In this document: positions 4,534 to 34,849 of the stretch, one piece after another
Layout of the letters: each line of letters starts with the position of its first letter
How positions within the stretch are numbered: position 1 is the first letter of the stretch
Assembly (NCBI GenBank): GCA_016204425.1
Contig: JACQKR010000046.1
Coordinates: forward strand, 1-41,983
Direction of reading: 5' to 3'
Source: Candidatus Levyibacteriota bacterium
Lineage (GTDB): Bacteria; Patescibacteriota; Microgenomatia; Levybacterales; UBA12049
DNA: 41,983 nt
Translations under genes and position numbers: made by a program
The notes under the pieces: generated by a model
Told to the model about the DNA's origin: nothing
The model's database searches: none
The model's input: only the letters and a program-made list of their open reading frames with translations

Positions 4534-4784
4534 CACTTCTTAAATTAGTTTGCATATACAGGAATTTGATCTGGTACCGCTGAAATGAAGCGTTAATTCT
4601 GCTTAAATAGGATTCAAAGGCGTTCCATTCTTGGGGACACCCGGCTCACAAAAAAATTTCGTTCCTTGCTTTATGTGCTACCTGAGTCATGTATGATCCG
4701 GGCAAAGCATAGACATCAATTGGCGTTATCTGAACTTCAGTGCGAGAAAAGGAGTATGTACATCTTATCACTTAATTTGTTGTA

Positions 4785-4813
4785 TTGCTATCCTCAGACT
4801 TTTTCTCTATAAT
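4785..4813 (+). promoter_or_regulatory. Sigma70-like promoter TTGCTA-17-TATAAT upstream of the uvrA uORF
   Basis: TTGCTA at 4785-4790, 17-nt spacer, TATAAT at 4808-4813. Confidence 0.5.
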
Positions 4814-4840
4814 TATTGATTGCACTTTTTCTCATAATTT

Positions 4841-4957
4841 ATGGAAAAAATCGTCATCAAAGGAGCACGGGAGCACCCCACTTCTGCTTACCTCTTCTCG
4901 TGGCCTTCGTCCACGCAGTCGAGGGGCGCATACGAGGGGCAGGTAACCTCAAAGTAA
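4841..4957 (+). other. 38-codon uORF made of a diverged duplicate of uvrA codons 1-12 plus an 81-nt insert; its stop lies 1 nt before the uvrA ATG
   Basis: atggaaaaaatcgtcatcaaaggagcacgggagcac (4841-4876) versus uvrA atggaaaagataattattaaaggagcaagagagcac (4959-4994): 29/36 identical, MEKIVIKGAREH versus [12 protein letters not shown]. The uORF continues [26 protein letters not shown], ends with TAA at 4955-4957, and the uvrA ATG is at 4959. Confidence 0.5.
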
Positions 4958-4958
4958 T

Positions 4959-7856
4959 ATGGAAAAGATAATTATTAAAGGAGCAAGAGAGCACAATTTA
5001 AAAAACATAAACCTGGAGTTACCGAAAGACAAGCTTGTTGTCCTGACGGGTTTGTCGGGGAGCGGGAAGTCATCTCTCGCTTTCGACACGATTTATGCGG
5101 AAGGGCAGCGCCGGTATGTTGAGAGTCTTTCATCCTACGCACGGCAGTTCTTAGGTACAATGAAGAAACCGGATGTCGATCTTATCGAGGGTTTGTCTCC
5201 TGCAATATCGATTGACCAGAAGTCCACGTCTCATAATCCCCGCTCAACTGTCGGGACGGTGACTGAGATTTATGATTATCTCAGGCTTCTTTTCGCACGC
5301 GTGGGGCATCCACACTGCACCAACTGCGGCCGTGAAATAGCGCAGCAGTCAAAAGAACAGATAACGAGCTCGATTCTGAATATGGTCAATACCCACAAGG
5401 AGCATACGAAGCCGAATTTGCCGCTTTTTATTCTCGCCCCACTCGTTAAGGATAGAAAGGGGGAATATGCAGATTTATTTGACTCGCTGAAAAAGCGGGG
5501 GTATAACAAAGTTCGCATTGATAAACAGATTTTTACGCTGGATGAGGATATTGTTCTTATCAAAACAAACAAGCACACGATTGATCTTGTTATCGATACG
5601 GTTTCCTTATCAAAAGAGACTGATAAAACACGTATTGCGACGGATGTCGAACATGCCCTCAAATTCGGTAATGGCGAGATGATGGTGTCGCTCATCAAAG
5701 ACGCGGCGTTCACCATTCCCGACAAGCCGAAAAAAATGGAAGACCATCTATTTTCAGAGAAATTTGCATGCCCCGTGTGCAATATTTCAATTCGGGAGGT
5801 AGAGCCCCGGATATTTTCGTTTAATACACCGCATGGTGCCTGTGCAAACTGTTCCGGAATCGGAAGAGTACTCAGTATCGATAGGGAACTCGTATTTAAT
5901 AGCATTCTTTCCATTAATGAAGGCGGAATTCTCCCTTTCTTTAACCTGACAAATAACGATACCTGGTTCTCGCGTACCTTTAAAACGTTTTGTGAAGACA
6001 ACAGTATTTCGCTTAACCAGCCATTAGGCGAGATGGAGGAGAAGAAAAAAACACTCTTGCTAAACGGTACAGGGAGTAAAGAATATGAAGTATATGGAGA
6101 GAATCGGTGGGGGAAAGGAACAATGATAAAGGAGGCATTTCAGGGTATCGCATATGAGCTGAAGAGGCGGTACAGTGAGTCGGAATCACAATACGTGAGG
6201 ACCCAGATCGAGAAGTTCATGCGCTATGAAACGTGTCCTGATTGTAACGGTGCACGGCTGAAGAAAGAAGCGCTCAGCGTCACCATCAATAAGAAATCAA
6301 TCGTTGATGTTTGTGAGATGTCAATTGAGAACGCTTCACTGTTCTTTGCGTCATTACCCACCGTACTCTCGGATCGGGAGAAAGAGATCGGGAAGCTTAT
6401 TTTTCGGGAGGTTAGTCAGCGGATACAGTTTCTCATCGATGTGGGATTGGAATATCTGACGTTGAACCGGGCGGCAGCGACTTTGGCGGGCGGAGAGGCA
6501 CAGCGAATACGGCTTGCCTCCCAAATCGGCAGCGGTCTGACTGGAGTACTGTATGTGCTTGACGAGCCTTCGATCGGATTGCATCAGCGCGACAATGAGA
6601 AGCTCGTTGAAACACTGAAAAAGTTGCGGGACCTGGGGAACACCGTCGTTGTCGTAGAGCATGATGAGGATACGATGAAAGCTGCAGATTTTATTGTTGA
6701 TTTTGGTCCCGGTGCAGGACTCAATGGAGGAAATGTGGTAGCTCAGGGAACGATACAAGACATAATGAAATCGAAAGAGTCAATCACGGGAAAGTACTTA
6801 TCGGGTGAGAGAAAAATTAAAATTCAAAAACCAGACAAGCTCGCAGGGGCAGCTCCGGATATTGCCTCTCTGAAATTGATCGGGGCATCGGAACACAACC
6901 TGAAGGATATCTCGGTCGAATTTCCTCTTCACAAGCTTATCGTTGTCACGGGAGTGTCGGGAAGCGGCAAGTCGACCTTGGTGAATGACATTCTTCATCA
7001 CGCATTGATGCAGATGCAGAATCCGTTTCACAGGGAGAAGCCGGGGAAGTTTAAAACCATTATTGGTCATGAGTATATCAAACACGTATTCGCGATAGAT
7101 CAATCTCCTATCGGGAGGACTCCACGGAGCAATCCGGCGACGTATACCGGGTGCTTCAGCTACATTCGTGATATTTTTGCCAAAACAAAAGAAGCAAAGC
7201 TTCGCGGCTACGGCCCGGGGCGCTTCTCATTTAATGTTCGAGGGGGTCGGTGTGAAGCGTGTGAAGGTGAAGGACAGATAAAAATAGAAATGCAGTTTTT
7301 GCCCGATGTATATATCACGTGTGAGATCTGTCAGGGAAAGCAATATAACGCAGAAGCACTTGAAGTGCTGTTTCATGAAAAAAATATCGCCGATGTTTTG
7401 GATATGAGTGTTGCAGAAGCGCTTACATTTTTTTCATTTGTTCCCGGCCTCTCGCATAAACTCCAGACCCTCTTTGATGTCGGACTATCCTACATTGGCA
7501 TCGGGCAGCCTGCTCCGACACTGTCCGGTGGAGAAGCACAGCGCGTAAAGCTCGCAACAGAGCTGTCGAAAAAGGGAAGGGATGCGTTGTATCTTCTTGA
7601 TGAGCCGACGACCGGGCTTCACTTTGCAGATTTAGAGAAGTTACTTCTCGTCCTTCGGAAGCTTGTTGATATCGGTAATTCTGTTGTTGTCATAGAGCAT
7701 AATCTGGATGTTATAAAGAATGCAGACTATATTATAGATCTTGGCCCCGAAGGTGGGGACAAGGGTGGAGAAGTCGTTGCGATGGGTACTCCCGAGGAGA
7801 TTGCCGCAAACCCCCGCTCTTACACAGGAAAATTCCTCAAAAAAGTTCTACAATAA
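4959..7856 (+). CDS. uvrA: Excinuclease ABC subunit A (UvrA)
   Basis: 965 aa. Two ABC ATPase modules ([14 protein letters not shown] and [13 protein letters not shown] Walker A; LSGGEAQR signatures twice). Zinc-finger cysteine clusters CPVC..CANC and [12 protein letters not shown]. Confidence 0.97.
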
Positions 7857-7986: not shown

Positions 7987-9849
7987 ATGAGATCTTTCTT
8001 TCGTTGTATTCTTCTTTTGCTTGTTGGCATTTTCTTTGTAAATTCGCCACGGATCGCATTCGCGAGTGAATATTTCACGACGAAATACGATGTGACCTAT
8101 GCAATCTCTGGAAATGAGAAGACGACAGTCACCACAGAAATAGTGCTCACCAATACGACCGATGATTATTTTGCAGGTTCTTATTCGCTGCAGTTGGGCT
8201 TTGAAAATATCGAGAATATTTCGGCATTCGATACGCTTGGAGTGATAAAACCGCAGGTAATCAAAACAAAAGACGGTAACTCGATTGACATTCCTTTCAA
8301 CAGGCGGGTAATCGGAAAAGGAAACGCCGTAGATTTCACGCTGAAATTCGACACAACTGATGTAGCCAAGAAGCACGGTAGCGTCTGGGAGATCAACATT
8401 CCGAAAATCCCTAAGAACAACGATTTTTCAACCTTCACAGCAAGAGTAACGGTTCCAAAGTCTTTTGGAAAGCCTATCTACATGAAACCCCAGCATCCCG
8501 GATCGGAGCTGGTGTTCAATAAAGAACAGCTGGAGGAGTCCGGGATATCAATGGGATTTGGGGAGAGGCAGGTATATGACTTTACTCTCTACTATCATTT
8601 AAAAAACAAACACCTCTTCCCCATCAGGACAGAAATTGCCGTTCCACCGGCGACTAACTACCAGGATATCCAACTTGAAGCGATGACCCCAAAACCTTAC
8701 AAGATGAGAAAGGATGAAGACGGCAATTGGCTTGCCGAATACCGGCTTGATCCGACAGAAAATGTCACAGTCACTGTGCAAGGGAAAGCGATCATCTCTC
8801 TTTTTCCGAAAACTGAGGAAATAACAAAGCAACAAATTGATGAGTACACAAAAGAAAAGCCGTACTGGCAGGTATCCGACGCAAAAATACAGACTTTGGC
8901 AAAAACACTTAAAACACCTCATGCGATTTATGAGTATGTGGTAAAAAATCTTACCTATGACTTTAGCCGCGTTACCGAGCAGAAAGGCAGAGCCGGTGCG
9001 CTTTTAGCACTACAAGAGCCTACCTCTGCTGTCTGTCTGGAATTTACGGATTTATTTATCTCAATTGCACGTGCCGCCGGAATTCCATCCAGAGAGATTG
9101 AGGGATACGCGTATACGGATAATCCGAAGCAGCGGCCTCTTTCTCTTGTGAAAGACATTCTGCATGCGTGGCCGGAGTATTATGATTTTGAGAAAAAAAC
9201 ATGGATTATGATTGACCCGACATGGGGAAATTCAACTGGTGGAACTGATTATTTTACCCAGCTTGACTTTGACCATTTGACTTTCGTCCGAAAAGGGGTG
9301 AGTAGCGAAATGCCGATCCCCCCAAGCGGGTACAAATATGAGAATGATCCCGACAGCAAGGATGTCCATGTTTCCTTTGCATCATCGTACGCACAAGCGG
9401 CACCTGCAATTCAGGTGGAGTCGATTATCGACAATGCATACCTTTCAGGACTCCCGATAAAAGGGAAGATTATCCTCCGGAACGCCGGAAAGACGATTTC
9501 CCTCCCACAGCAGGTGCTTATCGAATCACAGGATTTGTTGCCAAAGCGTCAACTGATTACGTCTGAGAGTATTTTGCCCTTCAGCTTTGTTGAAATTCCC
9601 ATAGCCTTTCAAAAAAAGCCGCTTTTGACAAATACAAGCGCAACTTTTACAATGAGCTTTGACAAAACAGCCATTCATAAGACAATACGCATTACCCCTT
9701 TTCTCATAAATGAATGGACTATTGCAGGAGGAATTACATTTGGAATTGCTGCCATCATCGTATGCATCATTGCCGTCAGAGCCTGGCGTGTACTGCTTTC
9801 TCAACGAAAGCGGAGCAATCCTTTACGTGGGGAAGGCAAAGGATCTTAA
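7987..9849 (+). CDS. Secreted or membrane-anchored transglutaminase-like (cysteine protease fold) protein
   Basis: 620 aa with a signal peptide (ILLLLVGIFFVNSPRIAFA). Transglutaminase core with Cys (TSAVCLEFTDLFISIARAAGIPSR), His (HAWPEYY) and Asp (IDPTW). C-terminal TM anchor (ITFGIAAIIVCIIAV) followed by a basic tail. Confidence 0.8.
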   Translation: MRSFFRCILLLLVGIFFVNSPRIAFASEYFTTKYDVTYAISGNEKTTVTTEIVLTNTTDDYFAGSYSLQLGFENIENISAFDTLGVIKPQVIKTKDGNSIDIPFNRRVIGKGNAVDFTLKFDTTDVAKKHGSVWEINIPKIPKNNDFSTFTARVTVPKSFGKPIYMKPQHPGSELVFNKEQLEESGISMGFGERQVYDFTLYYHLKNKHLFPIRTEIAVPPATNYQDIQLEAMTPKPYKMRKDEDGNWLAEYRLDPTENVTVTVQGKAIISLFPKTEEITKQQIDEYTKEKPYWQVSDAKIQTLAKTLKTPHAIYEYVVKNLTYDFSRVTEQKGRAGALLALQEPTSAVCLEFTDLFISIARAAGIPSREIEGYAYTDNPKQRPLSLVKDILHAWPEYYDFEKKTWIMIDPTWGNSTGGTDYFTQLDFDHLTFVRKGVSSEMPIPPSGYKYENDPDSKDVHVSFASSYAQAAPAIQVESIIDNAYLSGLPIKGKIILRNAGKTISLPQQVLIESQDLLPKRQLITSESILPFSFVEIPIAFQKKPLLTNTSATFTMSFDKTAIHKTIRITPFLINEWTIAGGITFGIAAIIVCIIAVRAWRVLLSQRKRSNPLRGEGKGS

Positions 9850-11155
9850 GGCACGCGTTTCATCATATTTTCAACCGGGAGCTGTCCTCGGAACAAAAAC
9901 GAGCGTCCTCGTCCACCAAACAAAAAAAGTCAAAATTGTACGTGTTGAGACAGAGGTTGAATCCCTGCTTTTGGAAGCGTTCTATATAAAGAAATATTCC
10001 CCGAAGTACAACGTCCGTCTCACAGACAATAAGTCATACCCGCTCATCAGAATAACGGTGAAAGATGCATTCCCGAAAATACTTCTCGCACGACGCGTAG
10101 ACGACCCGACATCAGCCTATTTTGGTCCGTATCCAAACGCCGGAGCTGTAAAGCTGGTTTTACGCATTATGCGTAGGATTTTCCCGTTTCAATCTGTTTT
10201 CAATCATCCGAAACGAGTCTGTCTCTATAATCATCTTGGTCTTTGCCCGTGTCCTCCGGTGCACAATACCATTGCAGATAAAAAGGAATACAAAAAAAAT
10301 ATCCGGCGGATCATAAAGGTACTCGAAGGAAACGTACGGTTGATTCTCAATGAGCTTGAAAAAGAGCGTAATGCTGCGAGTGTATCTGAAGATTTTGAAA
10401 GCGCACAAAAAGTTCAAAAGCAAATGAACGCGATGAGTGTTATTACGCAGCGAGTCACCAGACCCGTTGAATATGAAGCAAATCCCAATTTACGCGAAGA
10501 CCAAAGACAAAAAGAATTGTATGCCTTACAAAATTTGTTACGACAGAAAGGAGTTCCAGTCCAGTTTCCTCAAAAAATAGAGTGTTATGATATCTCAAAC
10601 ATTCAGGGCAAGTATGCGACCGGTTCGCTCGTTGTTTTCATCCAGGGAGAGAAAGAATCTGCGTTTTACCGGAGATTTCGAATCAGAAGAGAAAATGCAC
10701 CAAATGACTTTGCCATGATGCACGAAGTGTTGACTAGGCGCCTGAAGCACGATGAATGGAAGTTCCCACAGCTCATCGTTGTCGATGGAGGAAAAGGGCA
10801 AATCACAAGTGCTCTGCAGGCGATTGGAGAAGCGGGAATTTCAATTCCCTTGATAGGATTAGCTAAACGCGAAGAAACGATTATAATTCCAAATCCGAAA
10901 TTCGAAACTAGAAATTCGAAACAATATCAAAATACTAATGACAGAAACACAAAACGTTTTAAGCATTCGAAAATTCAAAATTTAGATTTGTTTCGCGCTT
11001 CGAAACTCGATATTCGAAATTTTGTTGAGGTTTCTCTCCCAAAAAACTCTCCAGCGCTTCTCCTGTTGATGCGGATTCGGGACGAAGCGCATAGATTTGC
11101 AATTACGTATCACCGGAATATTCGCTCAAAGGGAAGTATTTTTGAAAATAAGTAG
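9740..11155 (+). CDS. uvrC: Excinuclease ABC subunit C (UvrC), with an internal low-complexity insertion and no C-terminal (HhH)2 domain
   Basis: GIY-YIG motif (PGVYCF..ILYVGKAKDLKARVSSYF..KYNV), UVR-like helix region, and endonuclease-V-like domain (IECYDISN..VVDGGKGQ..GLAKREE..IRDEAHRFAITYHR). The start is uncertain: ATG 9710, or TTG 9740/9746 behind CAGGAGGAA. Every option overlaps the upstream gene by more than 100 nt. Confidence 0.9.
   Translation: MELLPSSYASLPSEPGVYCFLNESGAILYVGKAKDLKARVSSYFQPGAVLGTKTSVLVHQTKKVKIVRVETEVESLLLEAFYIKKYSPKYNVRLTDNKSYPLIRITVKDAFPKILLARRVDDPTSAYFGPYPNAGAVKLVLRIMRRIFPFQSVFNHPKRVCLYNHLGLCPCPPVHNTIADKKEYKKNIRRIIKVLEGNVRLILNELEKERNAASVSEDFESAQKVQKQMNAMSVITQRVTRPVEYEANPNLREDQRQKELYALQNLLRQKGVPVQFPQKIECYDISNIQGKYATGSLVVFIQGEKESAFYRRFRIRRENAPNDFAMMHEVLTRRLKHDEWKFPQLIVVDGGKGQITSALQAIGEAGISIPLIGLAKREETIIIPNPKFETRNSKQYQNTNDRNTKRFKHSKIQNLDLFRASKLDIRNFVEVSLPKNSPALLLLMRIRDEAHRFAITYHRNIRSKGSIFENK
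10890..11018 (+). repeat. Imperfect palindromic, TTCGAA-rich element inserted in frame within uvrC
   Basis: Five (A/C)TTCGAAA units. Arms CGAAACAATATCAAAAT (10917-10933) and AATTTAGATTTGTTTCG (10979-10995) pair perfectly over their outer 8 bp and imperfectly beyond. Translated as PKFETRNSKQYQNTNDRNTKRFKHSKIQNLDLFRASKLDIRNF, between the conserved AKREE and SLPKNSPALLLL..RDEAHRFA blocks. Confidence 0.6.
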
Positions 11156-16128: not shown

Positions 16129-16223
16129 CCTCCCGAAGCCCAGCCTCATAGGGCAATTTAATAAATTGAGGAGCGGAACCCCACTTCGCTAAAGCTACGC
16201 GGGGCGAAGGGAGGTGATTTTTA
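16129..16223 (+). promoter_or_regulatory. Structured 5' leader, copy 2 of 3
   Basis: CCTCCCGAAGC (16129-16139), CCTCA..TGAGG hairpin, CCCCACTTCGC (16179-16189), TAAAGCTACGCGGG, GCGAAGGGAGG (16204-16214), TGATTTTTA, ATG at 16224. A possible promoter TTGACA-16-TATATG lies at 16054-16081. Confidence 0.45.
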
Positions 16224-22318: not shown

Positions 22319-22460
22319 AGTATTCACCCCCCTTCGCCCTCCGAAGCTTTATGCGTAGGAGGGTTTCGCACCTCTATTTTCTCTTAATGATATCTCAGTT
22401 GAGGTTCTGAGCTTCGGGGGATCTCCGGCTTATGCCTTCGACCTCCTTTCACCGGAAGTT
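22319..22460 (-). promoter_or_regulatory. Structured 5' leader, copy 3 of 3
   Basis: In gene orientation: CCCCCGAAGC (rc of 22411-22420), 47 nt containing CCTCA..GAGG, CCCTCCTACGC (rc of 22353-22363), ATAAAGCTTCGGAGG, GCGAAGGGGGG (rc of 22327-22337), TGAATACT, ATG. Confidence 0.45.
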
Positions 22461-34566: not shown

Positions 34567-34639
34567 GGTGGAAGACGGGTGCTGCCCCCGCGACCTTCAG
34601 GTCCACAACCTGATGCTCTACTGTTGAGCTACATCCACC
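34567..34639 (-). tRNA. tRNA-His (anticodon GUG) with G-1:C73 and non-canonical D and T loops
   Basis: rc reads G GTGGATG TA GCTC AACAGTA GAGC A TCAGG TTGTGGA CCTGA AGGTC GCGGG GGCAGCA CCCGT CTTCCAC C. The extra 5' G pairs with C73, which is His identity. The T loop is GGCAGCA instead of TTCRANY, and the D loop has AG instead of GG. Confidence 0.7.
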
Positions 34640-34743
34640 AAATTAACGTAACGCAAAGCTCTCTGGGATGCGCATTTCCGAATCTCTTGAAGCTTCGCTT
34701 CCTGTTGACCCCGCTTTACGGGACCTTCGGGATACATCCACCA
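34640..34743. repeat. Insert between the tRNA-His promoter region and tRNA-His, bounded by an 11-nt direct repeat of the tRNA 5' end
   Basis: TACATCCACCA occurs at 34630-34640 (part of the tRNA) and again at 34733-34743. The interior contains CGAATCT, TTCCTG and the hairpin CCCCGC-TTTA-CGGGAC. A TATACT -10-like hexamer (rc of 34754-34759) lies 10 nt beyond the outer copy. Confidence 0.5.
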
Positions 34744-34849
34744 GGTAATAAAAAGTATACCATATCCGAGGCTGTTTCACTACGTCTCCTCTTTAAAAGC
34801 AACGTGTACAACTTCTTATAACCCCCATAAACTGTCTATTGTATTTTAG

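Follow-up and report, generated by a model that had tools for sequence, protein, structure and literature searches.

Why would a bacterial gene begin twice? The question is raised by uvrA in a 41,983-nt stretch of DNA from Candidatus Levyibacteriota bacterium (assembly GCA_016204425.1, contig JACQKR010000046.1, positions 1-41,983 of the forward strand), hereafter called the window. The first codons of this DNA-repair gene are found a second time just upstream of it, directly behind a promoter, and a GC-rich hairpin lies between the two copies. The arrangement looks like an undescribed, conserved, and uvrA-specific element that occurs in many candidate phyla radiation (CPR; Patescibacteria) lineages. 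From a comparison of sequences, we tentatively read it as a translated leader combined with an RNA hairpin, together controlling the translation of uvrA, and we put the probability of this reading at roughly 45%. Throughout the text, W denotes the uvrA locus of the window, the upstream copy is called the echo, the hairpin insert the rod, and the upstream and real start codons ATG1 and ATG2, respectively. The locus is composed of the following parts.

4785..4813, + strand: sigma-70-type promoter TTGCTA-17-TATAAT, matching 10 of 12 consensus positions

4841..4876, + strand: echo, a copy of uvrA codons 1-12 (peptide MEKIVIKGAREH), which opens a 38-codon upstream open reading frame (uORF) at 4841-4957

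4877..4944, + strand: GC-rich insert of 68 nt that separates codons 12 and 13 in the upstream copy, predicted to fold into a rod-like hairpin (pairing 4876-4939)

4945..4958, + strand: tail, a remnant of duplicated codons 13-16 (AAC CTC AAA GTA AT, from N-L-K-N), A/U-rich and lacking a Shine-Dalgarno (SD) sequence

4959..7856, + strand: uvrA, 965 aa, the first 36 nt of which (4959-4994) are the downstream copy; Pfam domains UvrA_inter and UvrA_DNA-bind

The echo (ATGGAAAAAATCGTCATCAAAGGAGCACGGGAGCAC) and the corresponding stretch of uvrA are identical at 29 of 36 nucleotides, and the differences follow the codons. Five of the seven are third codon positions and the remaining two are first positions (GTC/ATT, V/I, and CGG/AGA, Arg in both), which amounts at the codon level to four silent changes and one conservative change. 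When seven substitutions were placed at random, none of 5000 simulated trials ended with at most one changed amino acid. The original prediction, made from the letters of this DNA alone, had described just such a repeat with mostly synonymous differences, preceded by the TTGCTA-17-TATAAT promoter, and both features are reproduced here. The gene that follows is an ordinary member of its family: its product is 73-80% identical, over the full length, to the UvrA proteins of Candidatus Levybacteria/Levyibacteriota, which belong to the CPR; the organism of the window lives in groundwater.

The arrangement is real DNA and no product of assembly. Independent Logan contigs from four groundwater metagenome runs (two studies) span the W region without gap, indel, or joint; those covering 4600-5291 and 4784-5291 show no differences, one covering 4789-5042 shows a single difference, and a strain variant (4600-5149) shows nine. 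Because these contigs reproduce the region, we reject the assembly artefact (a collapsed or chimeric contig) that had been raised as a possibility.

The locus was compared with two sets of relatives. Twelve Levybacteria-type uvrA loci were gathered via UvrA protein similarity alone, and a scan of metagenomes for a degenerate echo pattern followed by CC returned another 13 loci (10 distinct), every one of which contains the echo, a GC-rich insert, and uvrA. The occupied set (echo plus rod) thus comprises 16 loci (13 distinct), all from the CPR, namely, W, L001, L081, and the 13 metagenome loci. The metagenome pattern imposes much of the echo's amino acid sequence; only W, L001, and L081 are unbiased with respect to constraint on the echo, and the layout is found in L001 and L081, both retrieved through UvrA similarity alone. 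The comparison of uvrA upstream regions that the original prediction had proposed divides the 12 Levybacteria-type loci into three occupied ones (W, L001, L081), eight empty ones (L002, L003, L004, L082, L098, L099, L100, L101), and one hairpin-less tandem. In the latter, L083, the first 16 codons occur twice in frame, with nothing in between (ATG...GAGCAT AAT CTT AAA AAT ATG...), and the two copies differ at 13 of 48 nt, all of them silent. The double start of L083 gives a UvrA of 980 aa, and directly upstream of its uvrA promoter stand an IS-like transposase ORF of 263 aa and a relaxase-like gene (L083, 1-1600). Two of the empty loci (L002 and L004) are labelled 'uncultured Gammaproteobacteria', and their uvrA genes and promoters are Levybacteria-like.

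These relatives reveal which of the two starts is the older one in terms of position. The promoter block of W is also present in L001, L004, L002, and L099, and the ATTGAT after the W promoter is common to relatives. From the -10 box, ATG1 of W is 27 nt away, a spacing similar to that of the sole ATG in most empty loci (~13-22 nt), with longer spacings in the empty loci L082, L004, and L002. Since the W promoter and the short leader before ATG1 are homologous to those before the only ATG of empty loci (L099, L004), the echo is the positional homologue of the ancestral start. As a separate observation, several uvrA leaders carry two or three copies of a short repeat (CGAATACATCC / TACGAAT) from promoter to start codon (L001 2790-2876, L004 2912-3000, L002 30-120, L090 ~9290-9342). 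This repeat occurs both with and without echo and rod.

Is the echo still read as protein? Its peptide is M-[DE]-x-I-x-[IV]-[KRH]-G-A-R-E-H in all instances (13 distinct loci), and third codon positions vary freely. In the unbiased trio, codons 8-12 show silent changes only (3, 3, and 2), and amino acid changes in the echo as a whole are rarer than under random substitution (P = 0.009, 0.012, and 0.065). With the pair L088/L093 added, P ranges from 0.0000 to 0.065. The echoes of that pair are 81% identical and all seven nucleotide differences are silent, next to UvrA proteins that are 99% identical and encoded by DNA that is 80% identical. L088 and L093 share an echo peptide (MDEIRIKGAREH) that is unlike their own real start, and the similarity between echo and gene is therefore no result of recent copying. 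At the amino acid level the upstream ORF is thus conserved, and its start codon has been kept, in line with the earlier view that the upstream copy is no decaying duplicate. These substitution patterns indicate that the echo is under purifying selection and has been since the arrangement arose. Among 76 uvrA N-termini from other bacteria and CPR, the echo is limited to CPR loci, and a scan of ORF starts in the window and ten CPR loci found a peptide echo at uvrA alone.

Between the W copies, the GC content is 0.60 (vs. ~0.35-0.45 in the flanks), and it is here that the rod is found. Its basal helix, P1, pairs CCCC (4876-4879) with GGGG (4936-4939), the first base of P1 being the last base of the His-12 codon. 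Further up, helix P3 consists of CGTGG (4899-4903) and CCACG (4911-4915) around the loop CCTTCGT (4904-4910). The original prediction had noticed this small hairpin, which is indeed present and turns out to be the tip of a longer rod that pairs 4876-4939. Directly after codon 12 follows an invariant CCC (Pro) codon (4877-4879 in W). Two size classes of rod can be distinguished, a long form of 68-70 nt (W, L001, L081, L085, L087, L088, L092, L093, L097) and a short form of 35-38 nt (L086, L089, L090, L091).

The fold of the rod is conserved beyond its sequence. For the nine long-form sequences, RNAalifold proposes a consensus of 20 pairs in three helices, and 11 of the 20 pairs show compensatory changes; P3, for example, appears as CGTGG/CCACG, CGAGG/CCTCG, CATGG/CCATG, and TGTGG/CCACA. 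In this consensus 91.5% of the cells are paired, values that none of 500 shuffles attains, and sliding the structure by 1-3 columns as a control lowers the paired fraction to 34-54%. A covariance model of the long form scores 78 bits at W (4874-4956) and also picks up the short forms (E = 3e-4 to 0.025). The same model detects no rod outside uvrA leaders in 167,749 nt (the window plus 19 loci; 42 kb of the source genome), and a repeat search of the window gives no second copy.

As the covariance model matches only before uvrA, the rod is not a dispersed repeat, and a mobile repeat of the MITE, REP, or RPE (Rickettsia palindromic element) type was rejected, the rod being single-copy and confined to uvrA in the sequence searched. 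Insertion of a small element was one of three explanations originally offered, to be checked by looking for further copies of the insert; the covariance model finds none in ~168 kb and the divergence of the rod parallels that of uvrA, both of which speak against it. At gathering thresholds, Rfam 15 recognizes only tRNAs in the window, and a permissive Rfam scan of 4780-5010 yields chance-level minus-strand matches (E of at least 2), none of them on the rod. An intrinsic terminator or attenuator was likewise rejected, since no U-tract follows the rod.

Behind the rod, the tail shows how far the duplication extends. Its general pattern is AAY YTN AAR AAY, i.e., N-L-K-N as in uvrA codons 13-16; at 12 occupied loci the tails read NLKN, NLKH, NLKS, NLNN, NLK, and similar, and the loci's own codons 13-16 read NLKN. 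Because the tail matches codons 13-16, the arrangement is a 48-nt tandem duplication in which the rod sits exactly between upstream codons 12 and 13. The original prediction was right about the copied first 12 codons but set the limits of the duplication too narrowly, as the unit comprises 16 codons and the insert proper is the 68 nt at 4877-4944. In 11 of the 12 loci the Leu codon of the tail is CTC, CTT, TTA, or TTG, and in just as many, continuing the frame of codon 12 gives N-L-K(N) for the tail provided that the rod is skipped, the rod length being no multiple of three (again 11 of 12). With the rod skipped, seven of the 12 loci, including L085 (which has no ATG2), have a tail whose frame matches that of the downstream uvrA, and in W, L086, L087, and L091 the tail and ATG2 are in different frames.

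Read straight through, the uORF behaves less uniformly. In W it ends at TAA 4955-4957, 1 nt before the ATG at 4959, and the resulting TAATATG had been taken as a sign of termination-reinitiation coupling. The overlap is there in W, and beyond W it occurs in L001 only. In 10 of the 12 loci the uORF stop falls between 37 nt before ATG2 and 8 nt past its first base, and the extremes are codon 15 (L091) and 71 nt inside uvrA (L090). With TAATATG confined to two loci and the stops scattered, tight termination-reinitiation is no conserved feature; a looser coupling between the uORF and uvrA may be compatible with these positions. Protein conservation of the uORF ends past codon 13, and in W the frame differs. 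At no locus is the real ATG preceded by an SD sequence, and it stands 8-18 nt past the stable rod. That ATG1 might be the true start of one continuous uvrA ORF, another option considered earlier, does not hold in 11 of 12 complete loci. A +1 frameshift at the TAA at the end of the rod was rejected too, as this stop codon is not conserved. The stop-poor, GC-rich rod also misleads gene callers, which push the uvrA start upstream through it in the wrong frame and so create false N-terminal extensions (e.g., P0076, L081 498-3545, 1015 aa; also P0041 and L092).

The identities of rod and echo track that of uvrA, and the two size classes of rod fall into separate UvrA clades. Seven occupied loci were inspected for a neighbouring integrase, transposase, or homing-endonuclease gene, and none was found beside uvrA. 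The simplest history suggested by these comparisons is that of an old leader, vertically inherited and often lost. Direct repeats flanking a hairpin are a classical deletion substrate, and easy loss by recombination between them fits the eight empty loci of 12. A site-specific integrative element of the SXT/prfC type was rejected in view of the 35-70 nt between the copies and the lack of a recombinase by uvrA in the seven occupied loci. In the short-form locus L086, an ORF at 10062-10730 that begins MRKTELAKGEYYHVYNRGVDKRNIF lies ~2.7 kb upstream of the uvrA leader, and we presume it to be related to IS200/RAYT-type Y1 transposases, which it resembles.

What could such a leader do? Any answer has to accommodate its anatomy and conservation, the covariation of the hairpin, the coding constraint on 12 codons, the restriction to uvrA, and the vertical descent with losses. 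Of the three explanations originally offered, the regulatory leader peptide fits best, and we favour it in the following form. The first 16 codons of uvrA were duplicated in tandem, the upstream copy retaining the native promoter, the short leader, and the ATG. Ribosomes would load at ATG1, translate the 12 upstream codons, and continue through the invariant CCC into the hairpin between codons 12 and 13, which they would have to melt as a structure of the sense RNA. In most loci they would then terminate near the real ATG, for which the remains of codons 13-16 would serve as an A/U-rich, SD-less leader. The supply or restart of ribosomes at the real ATG would thus depend on translation of the leader and on the hairpin. 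In addition, the nascent ...GAREH peptide, with Pro in the A site, may pause the ribosome at the foot of the hairpin; the GxRxxP of the leader (GAREH plus Pro) shares its spacing with the SecM arrest motif GIRAGP. UvrA synthesis would thereby be regulated translationally, in response to some putative signal. In kind such a device (leader ORF plus RNA structure) is known, and its design is unusual in that its leader peptide duplicates the N-terminus of the enzyme itself and has been preserved as such.

Several observations weigh against this proposal. In the predicted structure the ATG2 region is not paired with the hairpin, so that ATG2 is not sequestered. The antisense rod folds 2-8 kcal/mol more stably than the sense rod in 11 of 12 loci (summed over the 12, -329 vs. 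-283 kcal/mol) and the consensus pairs contain eight A.C against four G.U; given the stability of the antisense and the excess of A.C, the sense strand is only the presumed strand of action. Both the position of the uORF stop and its frame relative to ATG2 vary (offset +1 in nine loci, +2 in two, and 0 in one), the uORF of L090 overlaps uvrA by ~70 nt, and in L085, where a second ATG is lacking, the uORF never stops. Eight of the 12 Levybacteria loci manage without any leader. Delivery of ribosomes by itself does not explain why the residues of the leader peptide match those of the UvrA N-terminus, nor does delivery or coupling explain an N-L-K tail that is in frame only if the rod is skipped. 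Furthermore, the locus sequences were matched in no RNA run, the metatranscriptomes of the study behind L096 being without the locus, and most of the metagenome examples were selected by a pattern that fixes the amino acids of the echo. Independently of these points, searches of the literature returned nothing on a uvrA leader, on a uORF that mimics an N-terminus, or on an N-terminal ClpXP degron of UvrA (as a decoy model would have it), and a profile search for annotated uORF peptides gave no candidates. A CRISPR-like or guide RNA was rejected, as the longest exact match between echo and target is too short and the differences follow codon periodicity.

The same facts may be read in other ways. 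The rod could be a tolerated hairpin insertion without regulatory role, the duplicated 5' end supplying a new start and the leader being evolutionary baggage. It might have come from a fold-back or template-switch duplication of local sequence, or from a selfish insert resembling the intervening sequences (IVS) of rRNA or mitochondrial byp elements, and be lost by recombination between the copies. The patchy distribution among the 12 Levybacteria loci and the direct repeats around the hairpin would follow naturally, as would an insert placed at an exact codon boundary within a highly conserved motif, and a resemblance between the rod's 3' half and uvrA codons 8-13 (GCAAGAGCGCAAT vs. GCAAGGGAGCACAAT) is a hint that it arose locally. 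A start that had become a relic would decay, however, while the echo changes only silently and at a rate like that of the real gene; the hairpin, too, is maintained by compensatory changes and exceeds the silent sites of uvrA in conservation (in L088/L093 the rods are 86% identical, vs. 80% for uvrA overall at the nucleotide level), and no further rod copies exist in the 168 kb searched. On balance we regard plain baggage as unlikely. A further possibility is a hairpin that is skipped, by ribosomal bypassing or removal from the mRNA, such that codons 1-12 and the N-L-K-N tail are decoded as one frame into a short peptide or an alternative or extended UvrA N-terminus, as in L083. Skipping would account for an echo held under exactly the constraints of the real N-terminus and for a tail legible only without the rod, its Leu variously coded in 11 of 12 loci, behind rods that almost never measure a multiple of three. 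It would also make sense of the seven in-frame tails, of L083 as the hairpin-less in-frame form with its purely silent differences, and of L085 without its second ATG, and a stable hairpin at the take-off codon after a conserved nascent peptide recalls T4 gene 60. Yet no matching landing codon (CAY) is present at the 3' end of the rod, where the last triplets are AGT, GGT, AGC, GGC, or AAT, no CAY precedes the AAY codon, and no stop follows the take-off codon. Rods of 68-70 nt exceed known bypass gaps (~50 nt), the frame of four tails (W, L086, L087, L091) does not match that of ATG2, 11 of the 12 loci retain the ATG of the second copy, which is constrained as coding sequence in its own right, and no known bacterial machinery excises such an mRNA segment. 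This makes skipping improbable in our eyes. The broader idea that the echo serves as UvrA N-terminus through skipping of the 35-70-nt hairpin (a bypass or 'spliceless intron' on a bacterial chromosome), or else that the nascent N-terminus copy is the sensor in a new type of arrest-peptide feedback, strikes us as a slightly better bet, and still a long shot.

The stability of the antisense fold raises the thought that the element acts on the other strand or as DNA, either as an antisense RNA hairpin or by extrusion of the template strand, and is recognized by a protein. In one variant this would be UvrA itself, a binder of distorted duplexes, which would make the locus autoregulatory. Besides the better antisense folding in 11 of 12 loci (with 22 G.U pairs vs. 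nine in minimum-energy folds), the eight-to-four excess of A.C over G.U in the consensus speaks in its favour. Three of the eight A.C cells stem from a single outlier (L085), though, and since the loci share ancestry, the count of 11 in 12 exaggerates the case; the window yielded neither a promoter nor a terminator in antisense orientation, and why the echo is constrained like coding sequence is left unexplained. We consider action on the other strand very improbable. Scarcely credible, finally, is a junction between two diverged uvrA alleles, another of the original suggestions, or a chimeric or collapsed assembly. Copies that differ mostly at silent sites are what alleles would look like, and the IS-like transposase and relaxase-like genes lie close by uvrA in L083. 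Against this, the independent assemblies of four runs have the same sequence without joints, the resident promoter stands before the echo, and an orthologous layout with a covarying hairpin recurs in 13 distinct loci from at least two UvrA clades, the upstream copies of L088 and L093 keeping an identity of their own.

A second echo in the window deserves mention, as the original prediction had seen the same topology at both places. At 103 nt upstream of the tRNA-His gene (anticodon GTG; 34567-34638, minus strand), immediately after a TATACT box, 11 nt of its 5' end (TGGTGGATGTA) are repeated without mismatch (shuffle p ~0.001), and none of the five other tRNAs has such an echo. Echo and layout are therefore real; a common origin is not supported, as the covariance model shows the tRNA-His insert to be unrelated to the uvrA rod. 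L102 (from the genome of L001), the single relative compared, lacks the tRNA-His echo. We treat this echo as a separate local duplication at an insertion-prone spot. A general echo phenomenon was rejected, uvrA being the only hit of the ORF-start scan and tRNA-His the sole case among six tRNAs. The tRNA itself scores 50.5 bits in Rfam and is missed by ARAGORN; its T-loop (GGCAGCA) is unusual, its acceptor stem contains a T.T mismatch, and in the minimum-energy fold of 34567-34745 (minus strand) the echo, not the true 5' end, pairs with the 3' acceptor strand. In L102 (658-1180), a 156-aa ORF for an HNH_3 endonuclease lies directly upstream of tRNA-His and reaches 23 nt into it, and in Levybacteria the region before tRNA-His seems to act as a hot spot for insertions. 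The footprint of a homing endonuclease was rejected for the echoes, since L102 has the HNH gene at tRNA-His but no echo, and no such gene is near uvrA in occupied loci.

Other small hairpins are scattered over the window. The 9-mer CCCCACTTC occurs four times (1764, 4876, 12447, 16179; 0.24 expected, and four in none of 100 shuffles). At 4876 it is the 5' end of the rod, among the rods in this genome only, and the other sites lie in different small hairpins or plain coding sequence; the recurrence could be due to chance or to exchange between small hairpins. A GC-rich, hairpin-like segment of 28 nt (ACCCCACTTCGCTGAAGCTTCGAGGGGC) lies at 1763-1790, in frame within a pyridine-nucleotide disulphide oxidoreductase gene (1377-2810), to whose product it adds roughly PHFAEASRG, and an 89% identical copy is found in a 5' untranslated region (UTR) at 16178-16205. 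Two 5' UTRs, at 16178-16223 (+) and 22319-22351 (-), resemble each other in having a CCCC...GGGG hairpin followed by CGAAGGGRGGTGA (a strong SD sequence) and ATG, in contrast to the SD-less uvrA starts.

In short, the leader is of interest for several reasons. CPR bacteria are uncultured and their gene regulation is almost unknown, many classical regulators seemingly being missing, and here a leader stands before a core DNA-repair gene in a combination that, by literature searches and Rfam, is undescribed. If regulatory, it would provide a compact and testable model of translational control in the CPR, and it would illustrate how a partial gene duplication can be converted into a control element; if decoding skips the hairpin, the locus would represent one of the rare cases of recoding on a chromosome. 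For annotation, uvrA starts are mis-called at such loci (as in P0076), and the leader could join RNA family libraries.

How does the leader relate to known systems? The IVS of 23S and 16S rRNA and the RPEs are, like the rod, imperfect hairpins at fixed gene positions with a patchy occurrence among relatives. RNase III, on the other hand, excises IVS from a structural RNA, and RPEs occur in multiple copies that are translated in frame, whereas the rod is single-copy in the sequence searched, uvrA-specific, mostly out of frame, and placed beside a duplicated start. With SXT/R391 in prfC, the uvrA locus shares an original promoter and first codons that stay upstream while new 5' codons restore the gene. 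It differs in that its copies are only 68 nt apart (35-38 nt in the short form), with no integrase, cargo, or other copies, and in that its repeats are 48 nt of coding sequence instead of a short crossover core and the leader descends vertically with the host gene.

T4 gene 60 and mitochondrial byp elements come closer. They, too, feature a GC-rich hairpin at an exact codon boundary in an AT-richer genome, starting from the last base of the would-be take-off codon behind a conserved nascent peptide, and in them the sense of the reading frame is kept on both sides of the insert, as it may be at uvrA. Unlike them, the rod offers no landing codon that matches, the take-off codon is not followed by a stop, the insert exceeds the known gaps in length, and a complete second start makes bypassing dispensable. 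The nearest likeness is that to leader-peptide devices such as ermC/ermB, secM-secA, mifM-yidC2, and tnaC. These have a short uORF directly before the regulated gene, amino acid conservation near the 3' part of the uORF, a Pro codon at or after its end (GIRAGP in SecM and GxRxxP in the uvrA leader being similar Pro-ended motifs), and an mRNA hairpin that the translating ribosome must enter, as it would at uvrA. The uvrA leader departs from them in its hairpin, which does not visibly mask the downstream start, in its arrest and inducer, which are only putative, and in a peptide of only 12-13 residues at the putative pause. Above all, it departs from them in the nature of that peptide, which is a paralogue of the N-terminus of the very protein it would regulate, with the same residues constrained in both.

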